In this document: piece by piece, positions 2,530 to 63,640 of the stretch
Position numbering within the stretch: position 1 is the stretch's first letter
How the letters are laid out: every line of letters begins with the position of its first letter
Source of the DNA: Rhynchopus sp. YZ270_cl-10
Lineage: Eukaryota
DNA length: 64,000 nt
Direction: 5' to 3'
Assembly (NCBI GenBank): GCA_964035575.1
Contig: OZ037842.1
Coordinates: 930,001 to 994,000 of the forward strand
Made by a program: the position numbers and the translations under genes
Notes under the pieces: generated by a model
Told to the model about the DNA's origin: nothing
What the model saw: only the letters and a program-made list of their open reading frames with translations
The model's database searches: none

Positions 2530-5500
2530 AAAATGGATCGATCAAACGGGTGCAAAACCACGCGTCTATAACAGCACGATGAAACGCGTCCAAAACAGCG
2601 CATCGAAAACAGCGCGATGAAACGCGTCCAAAACAGCGCGTCGAAAACAGCGCGATGAAACACTTCCAAAACAACGCATCCAAAACAGCGCGATGAAACG
2701 CGTCCAAAACAGCGCATCGAAAACAGCGCGATGAAACGCGTCCAAAACAGCGCATCGAAAACAGCGCGATGAAACGCGTCCAAAACAGCGCATCGATACG
2801 AGCGCGATGAAACACTTCCAAAACAACGCATCGAAAACAGCGCGATGAAACGCTTCCAAAACAGCGCATCGAAAACAGCGCGATGAAACGCGTGCAAAAC
2901 AACGCATCGATACGAGCGCGATGAAACGCGTCCAAAACAGCGCATCGAAAACAGCGCGATGAAACGCTTACAAAACAGCGCATCGAAAACAGCGCGATGA
3001 AACGCGTCCAAAACAGCGCATCGAAAACAGCGCGATGAAACGCGTCCAAAACAGCGCATCGAAAACAGCGCGATGAAACGCTTCCAAAACAGCGCATCGA
3101 AAACAGCGCGATGAAACGCGTCCAAAACAGCGCATCGAAAACAGCGCGATGAAACGCGTCCAAAACAGCGCATCGAAAACAGCGCGATGAAACGCTTCCA
3201 AAACAACGCATCGAAAACAGCGCGATGAAACGCTTCCAAAACAGCGCATCGAAAACAGCGCGATGAAACGCTTCCAAAACAACGCATCGAAAACAGCGCG
3301 AAGAAACGCGTCCAAAACAACCCATCGAAAACAGCGCGATGAAACGCTTCCAAAACAACGCATCGAAAACAGCGCGATGAAACGCGTGCAAAACAACGCA
3401 TCGATACGAGCGCGATGAAACGCGTCCAAAACAGCTCATCGAAAACAGCGCGATGAAACGCTTCCAAAACAGCGCATCGAAAACAGCGGGATGAAACGCT
3501 TACAAAACAGCGCACCGATAACAGCGCGATGAAACGCGTCCAAAACAGCGCATCGAAAACAGCGCGATGAAACGCTTCCAAAACAGCGCATCGAAAACAG
3601 CGCGATTAAACGCGTGCAAAACAACGCATCGAAAACAGCGCGATGAAACGCTTACAAAACAGTGCACCGATAACAGCGCGATGAAACGCGTCCAAAACAA
3701 CGCATCGAAAACAGCGCGATGAAACGCGTGCAAAACAACGCATCGATACGAGCGCGATGAAACGCTTCCAAAACAGCGCATCGAAAACAGCGCGATGAAA
3801 CGCGTCCAAAACAGCGCATCGAAAACAGCGCGATGAAACGCGTCCAAAACAACGCATCGATACGAGCGCGATGAAACGCGTGCAAAACAGCGCATCGAAA
3901 ACAGCGCGATGAAACGCTTCCAAAACAGCGCATCGAAAACAGCGGGATGAAACGCTTCCAAAACAGCGTATCGAAAACAGCGCGATGAAACGCGTCCAAA
4001 ACAGCGCATCGATAACAGCGCGATGAAACGCTTCCAAAACAGCGCATCGAAAACAGCGCGATGAAACGCTTCCAAAACAGCGCATCGAAAACAGCGCGAT
4101 GAAACGCGTCCAAAACAGCGCATCGAAAACAGCGCGAAGAAACGCGTCCAACACAGCGCGTCGAAAACAGCGCGATGAAACGCTTCCAAAACAACGCATC
4201 GAAAACAGCACGATGAAACGCGTCCAAAACAGCGCATCGAAAACAGCGCGAAGAAACGCGTCCAACACAGCGCGTCGAAAACAGCGCGATGAAACGCATC
4301 CAAAACAGCGCATCGAAAACAGCGCGATGAAACGCTTCCAAAACAGCGCATCGAAAACAGCGCGATGAAACGCTTCCAAAACAGCGCATCGAAAACAGCG
4401 CGATGAAACGCGTCCAAAACAGCGCGATGAAACGCTTCCAAAACAGCGCATCGAAAACAGCGCGATGAAACGCTTCCAAAACAGCGCATCGAAAACAGCG
4501 CGATGAAACGCTTCCAAAACAGCGCATCGAAAACAGCGCGATGAAACGCGTCCAAAACAGCGCGATGAAACGCTTCCAAAACAGCGCATCGAAAACAGCG
4601 CGATGAAACGCGTCCAAAACAGCGCGATGAAACGCTTCCAAAACAGCGCATCGAAAACAGCGCGATGAAACGCTTCCAAAACAGCGCATCGAAAACAGCG
4701 CGATGAAACGCTTCCAAAACAGCGCGATGAAACGCTTCCAAAACAGCGCATCGAAAACAGCGCGATGAAACGCGTCCAAAACAGCGCATCGAAAACAGCG
4801 CGATGAAACGCTTCCAAAACAGCGCATCGAAAACAGCGCGATGAAACGCGTCCAAAACAGCGCGATGAAACGCTTCCAAAACAGCGCATCGAAAACAGCG
4901 CGATGAAACGCTTCCAAAACAGCGCGATGAAACGCTTCCAAAACAGCGCATCGAAAACAGCGCGATGAAACGCGTCCAAAACAGCGCGATGAAACGCTTC
5001 CAAAACAGCGCATCGAAAACAGCGCGATGAAACGCGTCCAAAACAGCGCATCGAAAACAGCGCGATGAAACGCGTCCAAAACAGCGCATCGAAAACAGCG
5101 CGATGAAACGCGTCCAAAACACCGCATCGATAACAGCGCGATGAAACGCTTCCAAAACAGCGCATCGAAAACAGCGCGATGAAACGCTTCCATAACAGCG
5201 CATCGAATACAGCGCGATGAAACGCGTCCAAAACAGCGCGATGAAACGCTTCCAAAACAGCGCATCGAAAACAGCGCGATGAAACGCGTCCAAAACAGCG
5301 CTTCGAAAACAGCGCGATGAAATGCTTCCAAAACAACGCATCGAAAACAGCGCGATGAAACGCGTCCAAAACAGCGCGATGAAACGCGTCTAAAACAGCG
5401 CATCGAAAACAGCGCGATGAAACGCTTCCATAACAGCGCATCGAATACAGCGCGATGAAACGCGTCCAAAACAGCGCATCGAAAACAGCGCGATGAAACG

Positions 5501-14571: not shown

Positions 14572-17006
14572 ATGCTTCCAAAACAACGCATCGAAAACAG
14601 CGCGATGAAACGCGTCCAAAACAGCGCGATGAAACGCGTCTAAAACAGCGCATCGAAAACAGCGCGATGAAACGCTTCCATAACAGCGCATCGAATACAG
14701 CGCGATGAAACGCTTCCATAACAGCGCATCGAATACAGCGCGATGAAACGCTTCCAAAACAGCGCATCGATAACAGCGCGATGAAACGCTTCCAAAACAG
14801 CGCATCGAAAACAGCGCGATGAAACGCGTCCAAAACAGCGCATCGAAAACAGCGCGATGAAACGCGTCCAAAACAGCGCGATGAAACGCGTCTAAAACAG
14901 CGCATCGAAAACAGCGCGATGAAACGCTTCCATAACAGCGCATCGAATACAGCGCGATGAAACGCGTCCAAAACAGCGCATCGATAACAGCGCGATGAAA
15001 CGCTTCCATAACAGCGCATCGAAAACAGCGCGATGAAACGCGTCCAAAACAGCGCTTCGAAAACAGCGCGATGAAACGCTTCCATAACAGCGCATCGAAT
15101 ACAGCGCGATGAAACGCGTCCAAAACAGCGCATCGATAACAGCGCGATGAAACGCTTCCAAAACAGCGCATCGAAAACAGCGCGATGAAACGCTTCCATA
15201 ACAGCGCATCGAATACAGCGCGATGAAACGCGTCCAAAACAGCGCGTCCAAAACAGCGCGATGAAACGCTTCCAAAACAGCGCATCGAAAACAGCGCGAT
15301 GAAATGCTTCCAAAACAATGCATCGAAAACAGCGCGATGAAACGCGTCCAAAACAGCGCGATGAAACGCGTCTAAAACAGCGCATCGAAATAGCTATTTC
15401 CCTCCCTCCCGCCAGAGCCCGAGGGATCCCTTGAGGGAGGTCAGGGCAGCCCGAGGGCCGAAGGCCCGAGGGCGCCCTGACCTCCCGAAAGGGAATCCCG
15501 AGGGCCAAGGGAGGGAGGGATGTAGCTTTGTGACCCGACGAGGTCGTTTTCTACCCGAACTGCCTGCAAACAAGCGCTTTTGTGGTGTTTTGTGTACAAA
15601 CACGTAGGTTTTTCGGCCCACATGGGTACCATCGTTTGTGGCCCACGGACGCCGAAAAGCATGCGAATACGCTTTTCGAGTCGCAGAAACCAGGTTGTGG
15701 GCCGTTTTAAAAAGTTTTTGGCCGGTTTCAGTCACCAAAACGCACATTCTCTCGCGGGAATTTTTGGTGCTCTCAAGGGAATCCTCTTAGCTCTCAAGGG
15801 AATCCCTTGAGACCTCTGGAGGGTTACAAACAGCGCGATGAAATGCTTCCAAAACAATGCATCGAAAACAGCGCGATGAAACGCGTCCAAAACAGCGCGA
15901 TGAAACGCGTCTAAAACAGCGCATCGAAAACAGCGCGATGAAACGCTTCCATAACAGCGCATCGAAAACAGCGCGATGAAACGCGTCCAAAACAGCGCAT
16001 CGAAAACAGCGCGATGAAACGCTTCCAAAACAACGCATCGAAAACAGCGCGAAGAAACGCGTCCAAAACAACGCATCGAAAACAGCGCGAAGAAACGCGT
16101 CCAAAACAGCGCATCGAAAACAGCGCGAAGAAACGCGTCCAAAACAACGCATCGAAAACAGCGCGATGAAACGCGTCCAAAACAACGCATCGAAAACAGC
16201 GCGAAGAAACGCGTCCAAAACAGCGCATCGAAAACAGCGCGAAGAAACGCGTCCAAAACAACGCATCGAAAACAGCGCGATGAAACGCTTCCAAAACAAC
16301 GCATCGAAAACAGCGCGAAGAAACGCGTCCAAAACAACGCATCGAAAACAGCGCGATGAAACGCGTGCAAAACAACGCATCGATAACAGCGCGATGAAAC
16401 GCGTGCAAAACAACGCATCGAAAACAGCGCGATGAAACGCGTCCAAAACAACGCATCGAAAACAGCGCGATGAAACGCTTCCAAAACAGCGCATCGAAAA
16501 CAGCGCGATGAAACGCGTCCAAAACAGCGCACCGATAACAGCGCGATGAAACGCGTCCAAAACAGCGCATCGAAAACAGCGCGATGAAACGCGTGCAAAA
16601 CAACGCATCGAAAACAGCGCGATGAAACGCGTCCAAAACAACGCATCGAAAACAGCGCGATGAAACGCTTCCAAAACAGCGCATCGAAAACAGCGCGATG
16701 AAACGCGTCCAAAACAGCGCACCGATAACAGCGCGATGAAACGCGTCCAAAACAGCGCATCGAAAACAGCGCGATGAAACGCGTGCAAAACAACGCATCG
16801 AAAACAGCGCGATGAAACGCGTCCAAAACAACGCATCGAAAACAGCGCGATGAAACGCTTCCAAAACAGCGCATCGAAAACAGCGCGATGAAACGCGTCC
16901 AAAACAGCGCACCGATAACAGCGCGATGAAACGCGTCCAAAACAGCGCATCGATACGAGCGCGATGAAACGCTTCCAAAACAGCGCATCGAAAACAGCGC
17001 GATGAA
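14572..17006. repeat. Satellite A array interrupted at 15389-15829
   Basis: 38-bp tandem units. Confidence 0.98.
15389..15829. mobile_element. ~440-bp non-autonomous Crypton-like element with long terminal hairpin (about 15393-15526)
   Basis: Clean insertion into satellite CATCGAAAACAGCG. No TIRs. Ends overlap as AAATAGC/AAACAGC. Hairpin centred on GGGCC-GAA-GGCCC; CTCTCAAGGGAATCC repeated near the right end. Family assignment is structural inference. Confidence 0.6.
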
Positions 17007-18440
17007 TTTGAGTTGACGGTCTTGAAAACACTTCGCTGGCTGGTGTGTCAAACGGTCTGTGTATGGTTTGCACGTAACGCTCTACGTTTTCGATACGATC
17101 TGTATGCAACGAACGCAACGCAACGAACGCAACGCATGCAACGCAACCGATGTGTACGTTACGATCTGTATGTAACGAACGCAACGCAACGAACGCAACG
17201 CAACGCATGCAACGCAACGCAACCGATGTGTACGTAGCGATCTGTATGCAACGAACGCAACGCATGCAACGCAACGCAACCGATGCATACGTAGCGATCT
17301 GTATGCAACGAACGCAACGCATGCAACGCAACGCAACCGATGTGTACGTAGCGATCTGTATGCAACGAACGCAACGCATGCAACGCAACGCAACCGATGT
17401 GTACGTAGCGATCTGTATGCAACGAACGCAACGCATGCAACGCAACGCAACCGATGTGTACGTAGCGATCTGTATGCAACGAACGCAACCGATGCGTACG
17501 TAGCGATCTGTATGCAACGAACGCAACGCATGCAACGCAACGCAACCGATGTGTACGTAGCGATCTGTATGCAACGAACGCAACGTATCCAACGCAACGC
17601 ATACAACGCAGCGCAACCGATGTGTACGTTACGATCTGTATGTAACGAACGCAACGCAACGAACGCAACGCAACGCATGCAACGCAACGCAACCGATGTG
17701 TACGTAGCGATCTGTATGCAACGAACGCAACGCATGCAACGCAACGCAACCGATGTGTACGTAGCGATCTGTATGCAACGAACGCAACGCATGCAACGCA
17801 ACGCAACCGATGTGTACGTAGCGATCTGTATGCAACGAACGCAACCGATGCGTACGTAGCGATCTGTATGCAACGAACGCAACGCATGCAACGCAACGCA
17901 ACCGATGTGTACGTAGCGATCTGTACGAAAGCATGCTACGGGTTTAACGCCATCGCGTTAACGCAACACCTGCGCCGCTGTGACACTTCGCTGGCTCGTG
18001 TGGTTGTGATAACGGAACGGTCTACACGTGCGTTACACACTACGGTCTTCGTATACGATACACACAACGCTATGCATGTGCGATACACGCGTTAACCGCA
18101 TCGTGTGGTTACCAAACGCAGCCCACCTTCGGTGGGCTGCTGCAACTCGTGCCGTGTGTGGCCCATGCACGGTTCTCACAGCTCGCTGGCACGTTTCCCA
18201 AGCCGCAAAACCGGTCACCTGCCTGAAAAACCGGGTTTTTGGCCAAAACGCCTGTTTTGCCTGTAGAACCCTGTAGAAGCCTTAAGAAACACGTGTATAA
18301 AAGGGGTACTCGTGACACCCTGGTGTCAGGGTCTCTAAGGGCTCCCAGCCTCGCTGAGCCTATACACGCCCCAAAAAGTGTCCGATCTTTCCAAAGAAAA
18401 CGTTTTTTCGGCTGGGCGAAGCTTCTACACCCTCAAAAAA
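17007..18440 (-). mobile_element. Divergent member of the Helentron-like family, 5' end missing
   Basis: Shared core at about 18160-18335. Variant 3' end CACCAGCCAGCGAAGTGTTTTCAAGACCGTCAACTCAAA abuts satellite A at the same GATGAA^ position as subfamily C. Confidence 0.65.
17095..17925 (-). repeat. Satellite B array in reverse orientation, mostly the GTAGCGATC variant
   Basis: 57-bp units CGATGTGTACGTAGCGATCTGTATGCAACGAACGCAACGCATGCAACGCAACGCAAC. Confidence 0.95.
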
Positions 18441-18464
18441 AAACCGGTTTTTGGTCGTATCCAG

Positions 18465-18834
18465 CATGGCTAGGAGTGTGGCAGCCACACGTGGCAGCGT
18501 GGCTGCCACGTGGCTGCCACGTGGCAGCCACACAGGTGGTCAAAAAGCCAAAAAATAGATGTCCATTTTGAGACACTTTTGGTACCAACTTTTCCTTAGG
18601 GATTTTAACTTTTGTGTTAGCAAAAAAAGCAAAAAAGTTTGGTTGCTCTACGGTCAACCTGGAAATCTACTAACGTAGAGGTCATGGCTAGGAGTGTGGC
18701 AGCCACACGTGGCAGCGTGGCTGCCACGTGGCTGCCACGTGGCAGCCACACAGGTGGTCAAAAAGCCAAAAAATAGATGTCCATTTTGAGACACTTTTGG
18801 TACCAACTTTTCCTTAGGGATTTTAACTTTTGTG
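18465..18834. repeat. 152-bp direct repeat (18465-18616 and 18683-18834) rich in CACGTGGC/GCCAC motifs
   Basis: Both copies run CATGGCTAGGAG...TTTTAACTTTTGTG and appear identical. Confidence 0.95.
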
Positions 18835-18920
18835 GCGCTTCGCGCCGAAGGGCTTCGCCCTTCGGCGCGAAGCGCCACAAAAGTTAAAATCCCTAAGGAA
18901 AAGTTGGTACCAAAAGTGTC
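18790..18920. repeat. Perfect palindrome, 64-bp arms with a TTC loop
   Basis: GACACTTTTGG...GCGCCGAAGGGC-TTC-GCCCTTCGGCGC...CCAAAAGTGTC, checked base by base. Confidence 0.97.
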
Positions 18921-19126
18921 CATTCTTTTGCGAGGAGTGGAGGACTTCTGAAATCCTGCCACTGTCAAAAGAGAGAGTAGGAAGTATTTAGTGTGGTTTC
19001 TGTGGTGTAGTGTAAAAAAATGGGTAGGGTTTAGGGAGGAGAACAGGGGTTGATGTATGAAATGAAAAGTTCAAAAATAATCTTTGTTTTGTATACTCAC
19101 ATATTGTCTGTAGTGATCGTGTGGGC

Positions 19127-19372
19127 TACGAAGGACTTCATTTCTGAAGAAATAAATGAAAAATATAATAAAGAATACGACAGACTTTATTTTTCAAAGA
19201 GGAGTAGCGAATACAACGAACTTCATTCTTGAAAAATAAGGACTCGATTACGACGGACTTCATTATGAACAATGAAACCTCTATTACGACGGGCTTCATT
19301 CTGAATGATAAAACCTCGGTTACGACGGACTTCATTCTGAATGATAAAACCTCGGTTACGACGGACTTCATT
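19127..19372. repeat. 36-bp minisatellite, about 6-7 copies decaying leftwards
   Basis: TACGACGGACTTCATTCTGAATGATAAAACCTCGGT units. Confidence 0.85.
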
Positions 19373-20065
19373 AATCGCGGAATTCGATTTTCCCTTACGA
19401 TCCTTATTTTTTTTTTTTTTTGGCCCTTTTTTCCTAGTTCTGGACCAATCTCTCAAATAAAGCCAGAATTTTCGACTTTTGAGCCTTTTTAAGCAATTTC
19501 CCTGCGTATTTCTGCAGGGAATAATCAAAAAAACGCAATTTTACCTTAGAAAAAGCGAAATTTTCGCAAAGACAAAAAAATTGAAAAATTTGAAAATTGC
19601 GAAATTCGGTTTTCCCTTACGATCCTTATTTTTTTTTTTTGGCCCTTTTTTCCTAGTTCTGGCCCAATCTTTCAAATAAAGCCAGAATTTTCAACTTTTG
19701 AGCCTTTTTAAGCAATTTCCCTGCATTTTTCTGCAAAAAATCATCAAAATAACTCAATTTTGCCTTTGCGAAAATTGAAATTTTCGAGACAAAAATTTCA
19801 AAAATTTCACAGTCATAAAAACGCTCAGGAAAAAATCGGGGTCCGTTTTTTGGGCAGAGAAGTGCGTTTTAGGTGCCCACAGGTGGTCAAAACATCAAAA
19901 TTTTGCGTTTTTTTTGCACTTTTGGACACCCAAGGATCCACTATCAGGGGTAGCCTGAGATTTCCCTTTGCGAAAAAAAAAATTTTTTTTTTTCGAAAAA
20001 TTTTTTTTTCGACAACTACTTTCTGAGGTACCAGTTAAGGGCGGAAACTCAAAACCGCGTTTTAG

Positions 20066-21010
20066 ATGACCACAGATGCTCAAAAGTGCCCGATTTTGCT
20101 TTTAATGAGCTCAAATCGTCAAAATAGGGTGCTCACAAAAAAATTTTTCAGAGTTCAGTTAGCACAGAAATCGCCGCTCCCACATGTGGCAGACGTGGCA
20201 GGTGTGGCAGCCACGTCTGCCACACCGTGGCGGTCGTGGCTGCCACGACCGCCACGGTGTGGCAGGGGTACCGCCACGTTGACCAGGAGAAAGCGTGGCA
20301 AGCGTGGCTGCCACGCGACCGCCACGCCCCTGCCACACCTCGACGTCACCGCCACACGTGGCAGCCACGCTCCGAGCCATGCTCCTCCTCCTCCGCAGCA
20401 ACGCAACAATGTGCCGCCACTGCAGTTGCATGAGGACGAGGAGTTTCAGACAAGGCTGGCGATGGAAGTGTGCGAGGAGGATGAGCAGGAAAGTGCCCAT
20501 GACTTGCAGCAACCCCTCAGTGATGCACCACTGCAGTTGCATGGAGACATCCCTGTACGCGACGTTCTGCAACAGAAGCCCGGGAAACCTGTGGACGTTC
20601 CGCGAACAGACGGCTGCTTTTTCTCCGCCCTGCTCGCGGCGAGCTCAACTACATTCAGCTTCTCCTCCGTTGAGTTTTTCCGCGAAACCGTGTTTGATCC
20701 ACCAAGAGTGTCGACAACGATGCGTGGGTTCGCGCAGGCTGCGTGCGCCAGTGACAATGCGGATGGGAAGTATACGACAGTCAAGGAATGGCAGGACTGG
20801 CACAGAAAAAGCTTGACGTCGGCTGACTCGCATGCTATTTCTTGGACTGCTGAATTCCTGCGAGTTCAAATCAACATTGTTGAGCTGACAAAGGAGGGAA
20901 CGCGCTCCGTCAAGCAGATCACCCCCACAACTGTACAACACACGGTCTGGCTGCAACAATTCGGAGGTACACACTTCCAGCCTACCCAGGCGTTCACCGA
21001 GGATCCATAA
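20066..21010 (+). CDS. OTU-like cysteine protease (deubiquitinase) domain protein with an upstream UIM-like motif; true start uncertain
   Basis: VPRTDGCFFSAL (Cys codon 20615), ADSHAISWTAEFLRVQINIV and VWLQQFGGTHFQP (His codon 20972) follow OTU motif order and spacing. EDEEFQTRLAMEVCEED is UIM-like. The N-terminal ~100 codons overlap GTGGC/GCCAC repeats and may be non-coding. Confidence 0.7.
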   Translation: MTTDAQKCPILLLMSSNRQNRVLTKKFFRVQLAQKSPLPHVADVAGVAATSATPWRSWLPRPPRCGRGTATLTRRKRGKRGCHATATPLPHLDVTATRGSHAPSHAPPPPQQRNNVPPLQLHEDEEFQTRLAMEVCEEDEQESAHDLQQPLSDAPLQLHGDIPVRDVLQQKPGKPVDVPRTDGCFFSALLAASSTTFSFSSVEFFRETVFDPPRVSTTMRGFAQAACASDNADGKYTTVKEWQDWHRKSLTSADSHAISWTAEFLRVQINIVELTKEGTRSVKQITPTTVQHTVWLQQFGGTHFQPTQAFTEDP

Positions 21011-21228
21011 CTTGGTTAAGGTTAGATTTGGGGGTTGGGTTTGTTTGATTGAGATTGGGGAAGGGTTGGGTTGGGGTATTAGATTCAGGGAGTGGGTTGG
21101 TTTGGTTAGTTTGGTTATGATAGTTAGATCACTCATGTTTCTTCTTCTATGTTTTGTTCATTTCCTTTATGTTCTGTTTACTTTGACACATGTGTCTGAC
21201 GAGAGCCACATTCATCATCTGTTATTCC

Positions 21229-21259
<31 letters not shown>

Positions 21260-21421
21260 AAAAAAAAAGAGGCCAAAAGAAAAAGAAAAGGCCCGCAAAA
21301 ACAAAAAAAAAAAAAAAAAACAAAAAAAAGGCAGTGGCCCCATCAAAAAAATCACTGTCCAAAAAAAAAAAAAAAAAAAAAACAAAAAAAAAAAGAGGGC
21401 AAAAGAAAAAGAAAAGGCCCA

Positions 21422-21456
<35 letters not shown>
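21229..21456. repeat. Poly-A-rich low-complexity tract with an internal ~120-bp duplication
   Basis: AAAGAGG(C/G)CAAAAGAAAAAGAAAAGGCCC occurs twice among long A runs. Confidence 0.9.
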
Positions 21457-21459
<3 letters not shown>

Positions 21460-21992
21460 GGTAAAACGCCACCTGGGGTCACAAGGCCCAGGCTCCTACC
21501 TTTACAGGTAGGGGAGCTGTTGAGTGACCCATAGTCCACGACGTGGAAACATGTAGACGTGTAGTGAAGAGAACCGGTTCGTAACGTTCAAATCGTACGC
21601 GTTGTTTTGACCTTTTTTTGCAGAAAAATGCAGGGAAATGCCTTAAAAAGGCTCAAAAGTCGAAAATTCTGGCTTTATTTGAGAGATTGGTCCAGAACTA
21701 GGAAAAAAGGGCCAAAAAAAAAAATAAGGATCGTAAGGGAAAACCGAATTCCGCGATTTACAAATTTTTGAAATATTTTGTCTTTGCGAAAATTTCGATT
21801 TTCGCTAAGGTAATATCGCGTTTTTTTTGACCTTTTACTGCTGAAGAATGCAGAGAAATGCCTTAAAAAGGCTCAAAAGTTGAAAATTCTGGCTTTATTT
21901 GAGAGATTGGTCCAGAACTAGGAAAAAAGGGCCAAAAAAAAAAAATAAGGATCGTTAGGGAAAATCGAATTCCGCGATTTACAATTTTTTTT

Positions 21993-22095
21993 CTGGCATC
22001 GCATCGGTTGCGTTGGTTGGGTTGTGCGCGTTGCACACCTTTCATACATCAACCACACCAGCTACGAGTGTTAAGGACTGCCAAAAAAAACTAAA
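21993..22095 (+). mobile_element. 3'-end remnant of a Helentron-like element
   Basis: ATCAACCACACCAGCTACGAGTGTTAAGGACTGCCAAAAAAAACTAAA. Confidence 0.7.
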
Positions 22096-22510
22096 TTCCT
22101 TAACACTCGGTGTTAAGGTCTTTAAGGTTGCTGATCACCTCCCACCCACCCACCCACCCACCCCCCCTCTCAGGCACCCTCCCCCCCCCCCCCCCCCCCA
22201 AGGTGGGGTTCGGGCATTTTTTTTCAGGTCTCTAAACCTCGAAAGAGGTCAAAAAAGTGGATTCTTGGGAAGATAGGAGGTTTTTAGGAGACTTTCTCTG
22301 AAGCAAAGACCTCCAAACCCTGACAGACCCTGAAACCAGGGTGTCGCGAGTACCCCTTTTTTACACGTGTTTCTTAAGGCTTCTACAGGGTTCTACAGGC
22401 AAAACAGGCGTTTTGGCCAAAAACCCGGTTTTTCAGGCGGGTAACCGGGTTTGCGGCTTGGGAAACGTGCCAGCGCGCTGTGAGAACCATGCGTGGGGGT
22501 TTGTAACCAC

Positions 22511-61933: not shown

Positions 61934-62641
61934 CACAAAACTAAATTTAACCTCATTTTTTATTTTTCAGTTGTGATCCAGTTTTCATGTTTAGTTATGA
62001 AAAGGGGCAGCACACAGATGGTTCATTGTAATGTTTTTCCACAGAACAGACTCGTGTCTCGCAAACTAGAAAACGCAAATGACTAAAAATTGTTGAAAGG
62101 AAAATGGACGAACATAACAGTGTGGTATACAAAAGGGACTATAATTTTTTTTTTCTTGTGACCGACCGTTCTTGCGCAAGTCTCTTGTCTGGACTTTTGG
62201 GTGGAAGGGATTGTGGAGGTGTGGCGGACCGCGACTTCATTCCCAAGCCTCCGACGTGGTTTTTCCGAGGAACAAACAGTACGACATTGCTGATTATCTT
62301 CTTTTTTCTCTCTTTTTTTTTTTTTATTCCACTGGGAAATAAAGTATACGAAGGATTTGGCACTTTTAGCGGGATTCTTTTTAATGATAATTTCACGCAG
62401 TTTTTTTATCGCGAATTTATAACCCGCTCATTGAACTTTATTTCACGCGTTTTTCACTTTTTTTCACAGCAATTCCTTCAGAGCGGGATTTTATTTTTGT
62501 TTTTTTCACGCTAAAACAGGGGTTTTATTTGGCGATAACTTCACGCTAAATTTTGGTACATCCTGCACCACCACCCGCCTAAAAATTGAAAATTTCGAAT
62601 TTTTTTTGCCCTTTTCCCATTTTTTTTCTGACACATGCAAC

Positions 62642-62954
62642 ATGCCGAAGGATGTAAGACGCAAACGGTCCTCCGACAGGAGATGGACAAGCACTACAGT
62701 GGTTTTGCTGAAGGACTAGCATTGTCGACACCGTACGTCCGTGAATGGGACCGCTTTTTAAGGAATTCATTGGCAAGCCTGACGGTAAGCCCACGGAAGC
62801 CGACTTCGTTTCGTATATAGTGTATCTCCGTGACGATCTCACTATCAAGACGAAGGACACACCACCCCCTTTACTTCATTGTGAGGAAGGTGGTGGCTGG
62901 CATGATATTCTGTGATGGGCGGGGATCTTCTGAATGTGTCTCGCTCTTGCACGA
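62642..62954 (+). pseudogene. Frameshifted remnant resembling the N-terminal (core-binding) domain of a tyrosine recombinase
   Basis: Reading across the T5 run at 62755-62759 gives STPYVREWDRF/KEFIGKPDGKPTEADFVSYIVYLRDD, a Y..W..F..F...PT...F..Y..YL pattern. No catalytic R-H-R-Y domain is visible. Truncated by a nested insertion. Confidence 0.4.
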
Positions 62955-63342
62955 CAGCCATTTCCTGACCTCCCGCTAGCACCCGAGGGGACACTGAGGT
63001 GGCGAGAGGTCGGGATGTAGCTTTGTGTACCGTTGAGGCAGCTTTCCAAACCCGACCACACGCTGCGCTACGCGCTATGCGTACACGTGGTGTGGGCTTT
63101 TTAGGCTACATACTGTACGCGCTACACACAAAATGCCGTTGTTGTGTGTGTAAAAACGTGGGTTGCGTGGTACTGCATGGGGTCACACGTGCACCACCCT
63201 GTGGCTCACACATGGTTCTGCCACTCCAAAAATGCGTATCCCACCCCACATACCAGGGTATGGGCCAATTCACCAGTTTTTTGCAGGTTCCCAGCGAGCA
63301 AAAGCTAGCGGGAGGGTAATAAGAGCTACCTGGAGGGACACA
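62955..63342. mobile_element. Diverged relative of the 15389-15829 element, nested in the Crypton-like element
   Basis: Shares left end AGC(C/T)ATTTCC..CCTCCCGC, internal GGGATGTAGCTTTGTG and right end CTGGAGGG..AC; hairpin centre shorter. Confidence 0.6.
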
Positions 63343-63598
63343 TTCTCGTTAGTTATTGCACAATAAATGAGTCCCGCTAAAAGTGCCAAATCCTTTCGTA
63401 TACTTTATTTCCCGTGAAATAAAATTACGTATTCACCTCCTTTTAGCGGATTATTTTGCGATACTTCACTTATTTTTTTCCCAGGCTCGTGCACTCAATT
63501 TGCCTCGCTTCGCTCGGCAAATTAAGTAGCCCTCGCCTGGGAAAAAAATGCGTGAAGTTATCGCAAAATAAAACCCCGCTAAAAGGAGGTGAATAAAT

Positions 63599-63640
<42 letters not shown>

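Follow-up and report, generated by a model that had tools for sequence, protein, structure and literature searches.

The window analysed here, 64,000 nucleotides of contig OZ037842.1 from Rhynchopus sp. YZ270_cl-10, contains a 439-bp non-coding mobile element, E1, whose joined ends match the reverse complement of a site inside the element and whose inner hairpin has three internal mismatches, all of them GA opposite GA. We tentatively propose that E1 is a non-autonomous element that moves as DNA only, in the manner of a Crypton, through a folded single strand and with a tyrosine recombinase borrowed from a putative partner element. The layout of internal site and joined ends is already known as the internal complementary region of DIRS1-like retrotransposons, which the sequence-only reading of this DNA had missed. 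The junction site itself is a known hallmark; what varies in E1 is the miniature size, the fixed mismatches of the ends, and the DNA-type hairpin. The parts of E1 and its surroundings are as follows.

14618–17006, + strand: 38-bp satellite array, recipient of the E1 insertion
15390–15828, no strand assigned: E1, 439-bp non-coding mobile element; empty site restored, multicopy in public sequencing runs
15390–15410, + strand: hairpin-side terminus, of which 15392–15410 pairs with 15509–15527
15417–15505, + strand: inner hairpin with three GA:GA mismatches, two A bulges, a GAA loop and six CCC..GA..GGG units
15421–15422/15500–15501, 15433–15434/15487–15488 and 15453–15454/15468–15469, + strand: GA opposite GA in the stem
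15460–15462: GAA loop of the hairpin
15448 and 15494: single-A bulges
15509–15536, + strand: internal complementary site; 15509–15527 complements the left end, 15529–15536 the right end
15772–15815, + strand: subterminal short inverted repeat of 15421–15435 (15772–15786, 87%) and small hairpin at 15789–15815
15821–15828, + strand: far terminus, pairing with 15529–15536 at 7/8 positions plus one T.G

Rejoining the flanks of E1 gives a 20-mer that is present 395 times in the window's satellite; the same 20-mer with one or two extra A, or with one A fewer, has 0 occurrences. Excision of E1 thus restores the satellite exactly, indicating insertion with no target duplication at the one site examined, and this restoration moves the element's limits from the 15389..15829 first given to 15390–15828. 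Given the run of A at the edges, the ends could be displaced by 1–2 bases, and the run also permits the insertion to be read, after a shift, as flanked by a 2-bp duplication of AA; this reading is disfavoured by the flanks of a second element, E2, and by an end-to-end junction contig. Together with the next flanking bases, E1 begins with TTT and ends with ATT. Neither classical terminal inverted repeats nor a target-site duplication of fixed length, the two marks of MITEs of DDE transposases, which the sequence-only reading had named as counting against its proposal, is found at E1. An Rfam search of E1 returned 6 matches, all far under the gathering scores, and comparison with phage genomes gave no match.

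The window as a whole is mostly satellite DNA. From 2570 to 61934, the 38-bp satellite is interleaved with 57/43-bp blocks and with recurring unique spacers of ~400–900 bp, possibly a centromeric or subtelomeric higher-order repeat. At 18790–18920 lies a perfect palindrome with 64-bp arms, a 3-base loop and nested GAA/TTC mini-hairpins, preceded by a 152-bp exact direct repeat (18465–18616/18683–18834); it looks like a fold-back end or a hairpin-telomere scar. Nested long inverted repeats (18162–22497, 180 bp at 94%; 19373–21990, ~380 bp at 90%) enclose a 314-codon open frame at 20066–21010 with no Pfam match, and a gene at 259–1650 on the – strand (~458 residues) likewise has no Pfam match and a single EukProt relative, at 55%.

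The proposal that the joined ends rebuild an internal site held for all three elements that we describe in the window. Against the reverse complement of 15509–15536, the joined ends of E1 score 36 (shuffles: mean 14.9, maximum 25, 0/1000 as high), and the corresponding scores of E2 and E3 are 25 and 98, again with 0/1000 shuffles each; for E2 the shuffle maximum is 24. The junction first written down matched the site but had one A too many, since flank joining fixes E1 at 15390–15828; the corrected junction nevertheless exceeds the internal site by one base. Pairing of 15392–15410 with 15509–15527 comprises 17/19 Watson-Crick pairs, one T.G and one T.T, and this T.G plus T.T pair recurs in the same register in E1 (15397–15398) and E2 (62961–62962). 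Overall, the ends differ from the internal site in 4/29 columns in E1 and 8/31 in E2, partly at shared places. When the whole of E1 is folded as the + strand, both ends are paired onto the internal site. A 16-base core of the site, 15517–15532, is identical in E2 and has 2 matches in the window, and at most a 6-base motif is common to the ends of E1 and the two halves of its site. Scanning with the core pattern returned 25 viral loci, none with the context of E1; a longer core pattern had 0 matches in metagenomes, and the tip patterns of E1 and E3 had 0 matches in viral contigs.

62954–63342, no strand assigned: E2, diverged relative of E1 nested in E3, with the same end motifs and an internal site at 63006–63031
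~62322–63600, + strand: E3, unrelated to E1 in sequence, same layout
62632–62958, + strand: broken reading frames inside E3, of which the piece 62745–62912 is weakly similar to an integrase N-terminal SAM-like domain

The ends of E2 are similar to those of E1 and its body is partly alignable, with a 12-bp exact inverted repeat (62969–62980/63304–63315) and a short hairpin without the GA:GA stack; E2 holds a single CCC-GA-GGG unit. In E3, the 5' end is mirrored at 63365–63424 (92%), followed by a terminal hairpin at 63417–63608 with a GA:GA plus GAA tip on the – strand. Each end of E3 has a T run, and a 10-base motif is common to the two ends and the two halves of its internal site. Inverted repeats measure 15 bp (87%) in E1 and 12 bp in E2, and 44 bp (82%) and 28 bp (96%) in E3.

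The hairpin of E1 was described correctly by the sequence-only reading: the pair table gives GA:GA at all three 2x2 mismatches, a GAA loop and two single-A bulges. DNA hairpins gain stability from tandem GA pairs that stand between a pyrimidine and a purine (pyrimidine-GA-purine) and from C-GAA-G loops. Folded as DNA, 15412–15510 reaches –41.1 kcal/mol on the + strand (z –8.91) and –40.0 kcal/mol on the – strand (z –8.49), with 0/200 shuffles as good in either case. The further suggestion that the hairpin is strand-selective found little echo in the energy model, in which 15390–15530 folds at –57.9 (+) versus –56.5 (–), a bias of 1.4 kcal/mol; E2 has no bias (–13.3 versus –13.7), and that of E3 is 6.7. 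A GA:GA mismatch with a GNA loop at the tip occurs 2 times in the 14,417 non-satellite bases of the window, once each in E1 and E3, a number that 0/300 Markov controls reach, and, relative to the layout, these two GA:GA plus GAA tips share one strand, namely the strand that reads the hairpin first. Because a repeated CCC-GA-GGG unit supplies four of the six GA in the E1 stem, the three mismatches are not independent of one another; two different units make up the middle pair, and GA:GA is kept there nonetheless.

Similar hairpins and a similar layout were also found elsewhere. The tip motif of E3 has 15 metagenomic loci, 14 of which look, by eye, like hairpin-rich prokaryotic repeats. On an AT-rich contig, L039, a 281-bp element at 2740–3020 has joined ends that match an internal site in 38/41 columns (a value that stands without a shuffle control); at its tip, GA:GA is found on the strand reading the hairpin last, and its outer GA:GA is on the opposite one. 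These loci indicate that the layout is not unique to this host, that GA:GA/GAA hairpins are common, and that their polarity is not universal. The same contig has a second GA:GA plus GAA hairpin element at 3597–4514, with a tip almost identical to that of E1, and clusters of GA:GA/GAA mini-hairpins occur on prokaryote-looking contigs (L026–L029, L035–L037, L040), several of them right after tRNA-like sequence. Given that E2 and one contig of the E1 family are without the stack and that the L039 tip is on the opposite strand, an essential role of the GA:GA site is disfavoured. The GA:GA stack is accessory and not the core site; the putative site is the duplex of ends and internal site. Within the literature covered, of which Repbase reports and most subscription papers were not part, there was no description of GA:GA/GNA hairpins in the ends of DIRS or Crypton elements.

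E1 belongs to a multicopy family. Its sequence, whole or in part, is present in 10 of the 22 public sequencing runs listed, one of which may be the source of the window itself; no RNA run figures among those listed as carrying it, which does not bear on expression. Four of the ten yielded 3, 162, 652 and 3 contigs that align to E1. One contig of run X3 links 15829 to 15395 across four intervening letters; it is colinear with the junction predicted and has a variant left end. The end-to-end junction contig keeps both terminal A. The right-to-left end junction that the sequence-only reading had proposed to look for thus exists, in a form that is shared by a circle and a tandem copy. A loose-end consensus in X5 (2 contigs, agreement 0.65) places an E2-like right end before an E1 left end, and another X3 contig is without 15426–15506. 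Mobility of the element, argued by its copy number and by the lack of target duplication and of classical terminal inverted repeats, is therefore upheld; the accompanying assignment to Cryptons is not, as E1 has neither a 4–6 bp terminal direct repeat nor a partner protein.

Variants of the hairpin within the family show changes on both of its arms. The runs X1 and X8 have a 15448 A>T that is paired by an A inserted behind 15473, and loss of 15427 and 15491 accompanies 15495 A>G; by our reading these variants keep the E1 stem, with linkage of the changes taken as given. The combination of 15449 G>C and 15473 C>A is mismatched, and X3 and X5 also have 15473 C>G, which would restore the pair if similarly linked. 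Among the 40 of 57 rows listed, 14 rows at 12 positions are substitutions within 15390–15530, and none of these 14 falls on the 15 GA and loop bases, an outcome with a chance of about one in four that is not significant.

Candidate longer copies were also seen. One X5 record (record 15, 3745 bases) ends in a relative of the E1 hairpin region and is a candidate longer or autonomous copy, and records of 1066–1257 bases also end in E1-like sequence. Loose ends before 15390 in X3 and X8 suggest by eye that the flanks of other E1 copies resemble the end motifs of E3. The E1 family may favour insertion into E3-type elements; E2, too, sits inside E3.

The broken frame of E3, which begins ~310 bp from the 5' end of that element and lies outside the E1 family proper, offers a possible pointer to the enzyme. 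The resemblance of the piece 62745–62912 to integrases was spotted before any search. In the Atlas, 9/10 clusters listed are integrase or SAM-like by name or Pfam families (scores 0.89–0.90), with a recognition of 2181, below the 2300 mark, and only 67–79 of 256 features shared. The piece aligns to the SAM region of a phage integrase with 14/28 identical residues at an E value of 3, and 2/5 of its phage matches are on the strand opposite to the annotated gene (one checked). When 9 related integrases were made into a profile with the seed left out, the piece was not among the best 6 of 1483 pieces; Pfam, PHROGs, NCBIfam and PDB sequences returned nothing relevant to it, and the E3 frame pieces had no match in plasmids or PDB sequences. 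A single-sequence model (pLDDT 56) gave no Foldseek match and no Z of at least 5, and is uninformative. Searches with the frame pieces gave no longer relatives; among the representatives searched, there were only near-identical copies and 5 low-complexity matches (one of five inspected). Databases contain 9 near-identical members for the 56-residue piece, spread over at least 25 contig records, so E3 is itself multicopy. Searches of viral and genome contigs did not find relatives of the phage integrase, and the analysis turned up neither an autonomous partner nor a catalytic domain or reverse transcriptase.

In each of the three serious models of E1 movement, a single strand has both of its ends gathered on the internal site; the models differ in the enzyme and in the source of the strand. 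In the model that we prefer, the internal site of the + strand would pair with both ends side by side and hold them as a nicked duplex; the GA:GA/GAA hairpin would aid folding of this strand and not be required for it. The ends would then be joined into a circle, and a recombinase would cut the junction between the two terminal A and insert E1. A tyrosine recombinase is favoured by the DIRS-type layout, the four-way motif of E3 and the faint signal in the broken frame of E3, and it is probable that one or other of the two recombinase readings, DNA-only or miniature DIRS, is correct. We lean towards DNA (Crypton-type), rather than reverse transcription (DIRS), as the source of the single strand, and this is the least certain part of the model. 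Three features favour the DNA-only route: the ends are not copies of the site, the T.G/T.T pair occupies the same register in E1 and E2, and in E3 the integrase-like piece stands first. Repair of the ends with the internal site as template would be expected to erase the T.G/T.T pair.

A miniature DIRS1-like element is a somewhat unlikely but serious alternative. A – strand transcript of E1 would be copied by the reverse transcriptase of a partner into + strand single-stranded cDNA, the ends would be restored on the internal region, and the resulting circle would be inserted by the partner's tyrosine recombinase. Read on the – strand, E1 has the order of DIRS1 (5' end, body, internal site, inverted repeat, extension). 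The TTT/ATT of E1 and the T runs of E3 resemble NTT ends, the four-way motif of E3 fits, DIRS reverse transcriptase can act in trans, and the 3745-base X5 contig could be the partner. The strand of the GA:GA hairpin also fits and does not separate this route from the DNA-only one, because DIRS makes the same antisense strand as single-stranded cDNA. Set against these points are inverted repeats of 15 bp at 87%, 12 bp, and 44 bp at 82%, compared with 31–304 bp of strict complementarity in DIRS1-like elements, the partly shared differences between ends and site noted above, the lack of NTT ends in E2, and the integrase-like piece of E3 where gag belongs.

We consider it improbable that E1 is a non-autonomous Helitron2 or Helentron mobilised by an HUH Rep-helicase, in which the junction match would simply follow from an asymmetric repeat adjoining a terminal hairpin. 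Such a repeat is present beside the hairpin, as are joined ends, GAA loops and the absence of a duplication; in that orientation E1, E2 and E3 all start with T, with E1 and E3 in T runs, and HUH enzymes act on single strands, which fits a DNA hairpin. The distance from repeat to end is nevertheless ~140, 71 and 177 bases in E1, E2 and E3, versus 20–51 in Helitron2, and the repeat is ~60 bp long in E3; the 5' repeat of E1 lies outside its 5' hairpin, E2 is not in a T run, and the broken frame of E3 points, if weakly, to an integrase. Finally, the reading of E1 as a fold-back or MITE-like element that depends on a cut-and-paste transposase, its hairpin a by-product of a repeated quasi-palindromic unit, is largely excluded. 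Four exact CCC-GA-GGG units yield GA:GA automatically, the boundaries can be read with a 2-bp AA duplication, and such hairpins are common in unrelated repeats, as the prokaryotic-looking appearance of 14/15 E3-tip loci illustrates. Yet E1 has no terminal inverted repeat, three elements have an asymmetric junction match, E2 lacks AA flanks, and the end-to-end junction keeps both terminal A, so that this explanation is very improbable.

With its defined ends, end-to-end junction and natural hairpin variants, this multicopy 439-bp element is a minimal substrate on which to examine whether a folded single strand can serve eukaryotic tyrosine recombinases. Should its partner prove to be an ordinary DIRS or Helitron2, E1 would amount to a routine new family from a protist that has been little studied. 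Some eukaryotic DNA transposons that lack reverse transcriptase might form a class that uses a DIRS-type junction as a folded single-stranded recombination site, with fixed unpaired bases and GA:GA/GAA hairpins choosing the strand and with E1, E2, E3 and the L039 element as passengers in distant hosts. We regard this broader idea as unlikely; if true, it would link Crypton and DIRS ends to one mechanism akin to integron attC and CTX-phage integration.

In the available portions of the papers cited here, DIRS1-like elements are defined by an internal region whose complements are the start of the left terminus and the end of the right one (PMC6681497, PMC3266345, PMC9210276, PMC8969392, PMC13465315), and the title of the 1985 DIRS-1 paper, as cited, speaks of an 'internal circle junction sequence'. 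The internal region of DIRS-1 is needed for transposition, the intermediate is single-stranded antisense cDNA, the reverse transcriptase can work in trans, and the specificity of the recombinase is described as uninvestigated (PMC7192593). E1, E2 and E3 share with these elements an internal site near one end that complements the adjacent joined termini. E1 shares the lack of target duplication (one site) and, in its GA:GA hairpin, the strand of the single-stranded DNA intermediate; E1 and E3 share T-rich ends, with NTT ends fitting both and not E2, and E3 shares a four-way motif of at least 10 bases, compared with only 6 bases in E1. In contrast to DIRS1-like elements, E1 is ten times shorter and non-coding, with no reverse transcriptase found, and the inverted repeats of all three elements are short or imperfect, whereas the strictly complementary part in DIRS1-like elements spans 31–304 bp (PMC3266345). 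The internal site of DIRS-1 is described as exactly complementary (PMC3266345, PMC7192593), whereas the ends here are not exact complements of the site and the E1 junction is one base longer than it. E3 also has an integrase-like piece first, where DIRS has gag.

Cryptons are described in the accessible parts of two papers as having 4–6 bp direct repeats or none, with an untested circle model (PMC3212892, PMC13565253), and their transposition as not yet shown by experiment (PMC13565253). E1 resembles them in the lack of classical inverted repeats and of duplication and in the proposed circle, and E3 in having its integrase-like piece first; small non-autonomous members are also known, of 353–709 bp among the animal families listed (PMC3212892). 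E1 and E2 are without the 4–6 bp terminal direct repeat of CryptonF/S (E1 has at most an A run, E2 one A). CryptonA/I stay compatible with E1, being reported without terminal repeats (PMC3212892). Neither an internal junction site nor a hairpin is described for Cryptons in the portions of PMC3212892 and PMC13565253 available, and the corresponding portions of PMC5753468 and PMC4455052 name CryptonV and salmon non-autonomous Cryptons and leave their ends undescribed.

Helitron2 elements, again from partial text, have an asymmetric inverted repeat of 8–15 bp directly upstream of the 3' hairpin, with the 3' copy 20–51 bases from the end and the 5' copy within a 5' hairpin, and also a 5' T, no duplication, detected joined ends and GAA-loop hairpins (PMC3627910, PMC5148889). 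E1 shares an asymmetric repeat upstream of a terminal hairpin, the 5' T, the lack of duplication, joined ends and the GAA loop; a T context surrounds E1 and E3 and does not surround E2. Beyond the spacing and length of the repeat and its place outside the 5' hairpin, E1 differs from Helitron2 and Helentrons in a hairpin that is several times longer, and no Rep-helicase was found. Replitrons were dropped as candidates for E1, as they have short direct terminal repeats.

Salmon Crypton-N1_SSa and Eulor5/6 carry a hairpin-plus-tail layout like that of E1, and integron attC and CTX-phage attP are folded single-strand recombination sites. E1 differs from attC and attP in that its putative site is the duplex of ends and internal site, not the GA:GA stem. 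It resembles them in that an imperfect fold with fixed unpaired bases could re-create, on one strand, a site for a recombinase.
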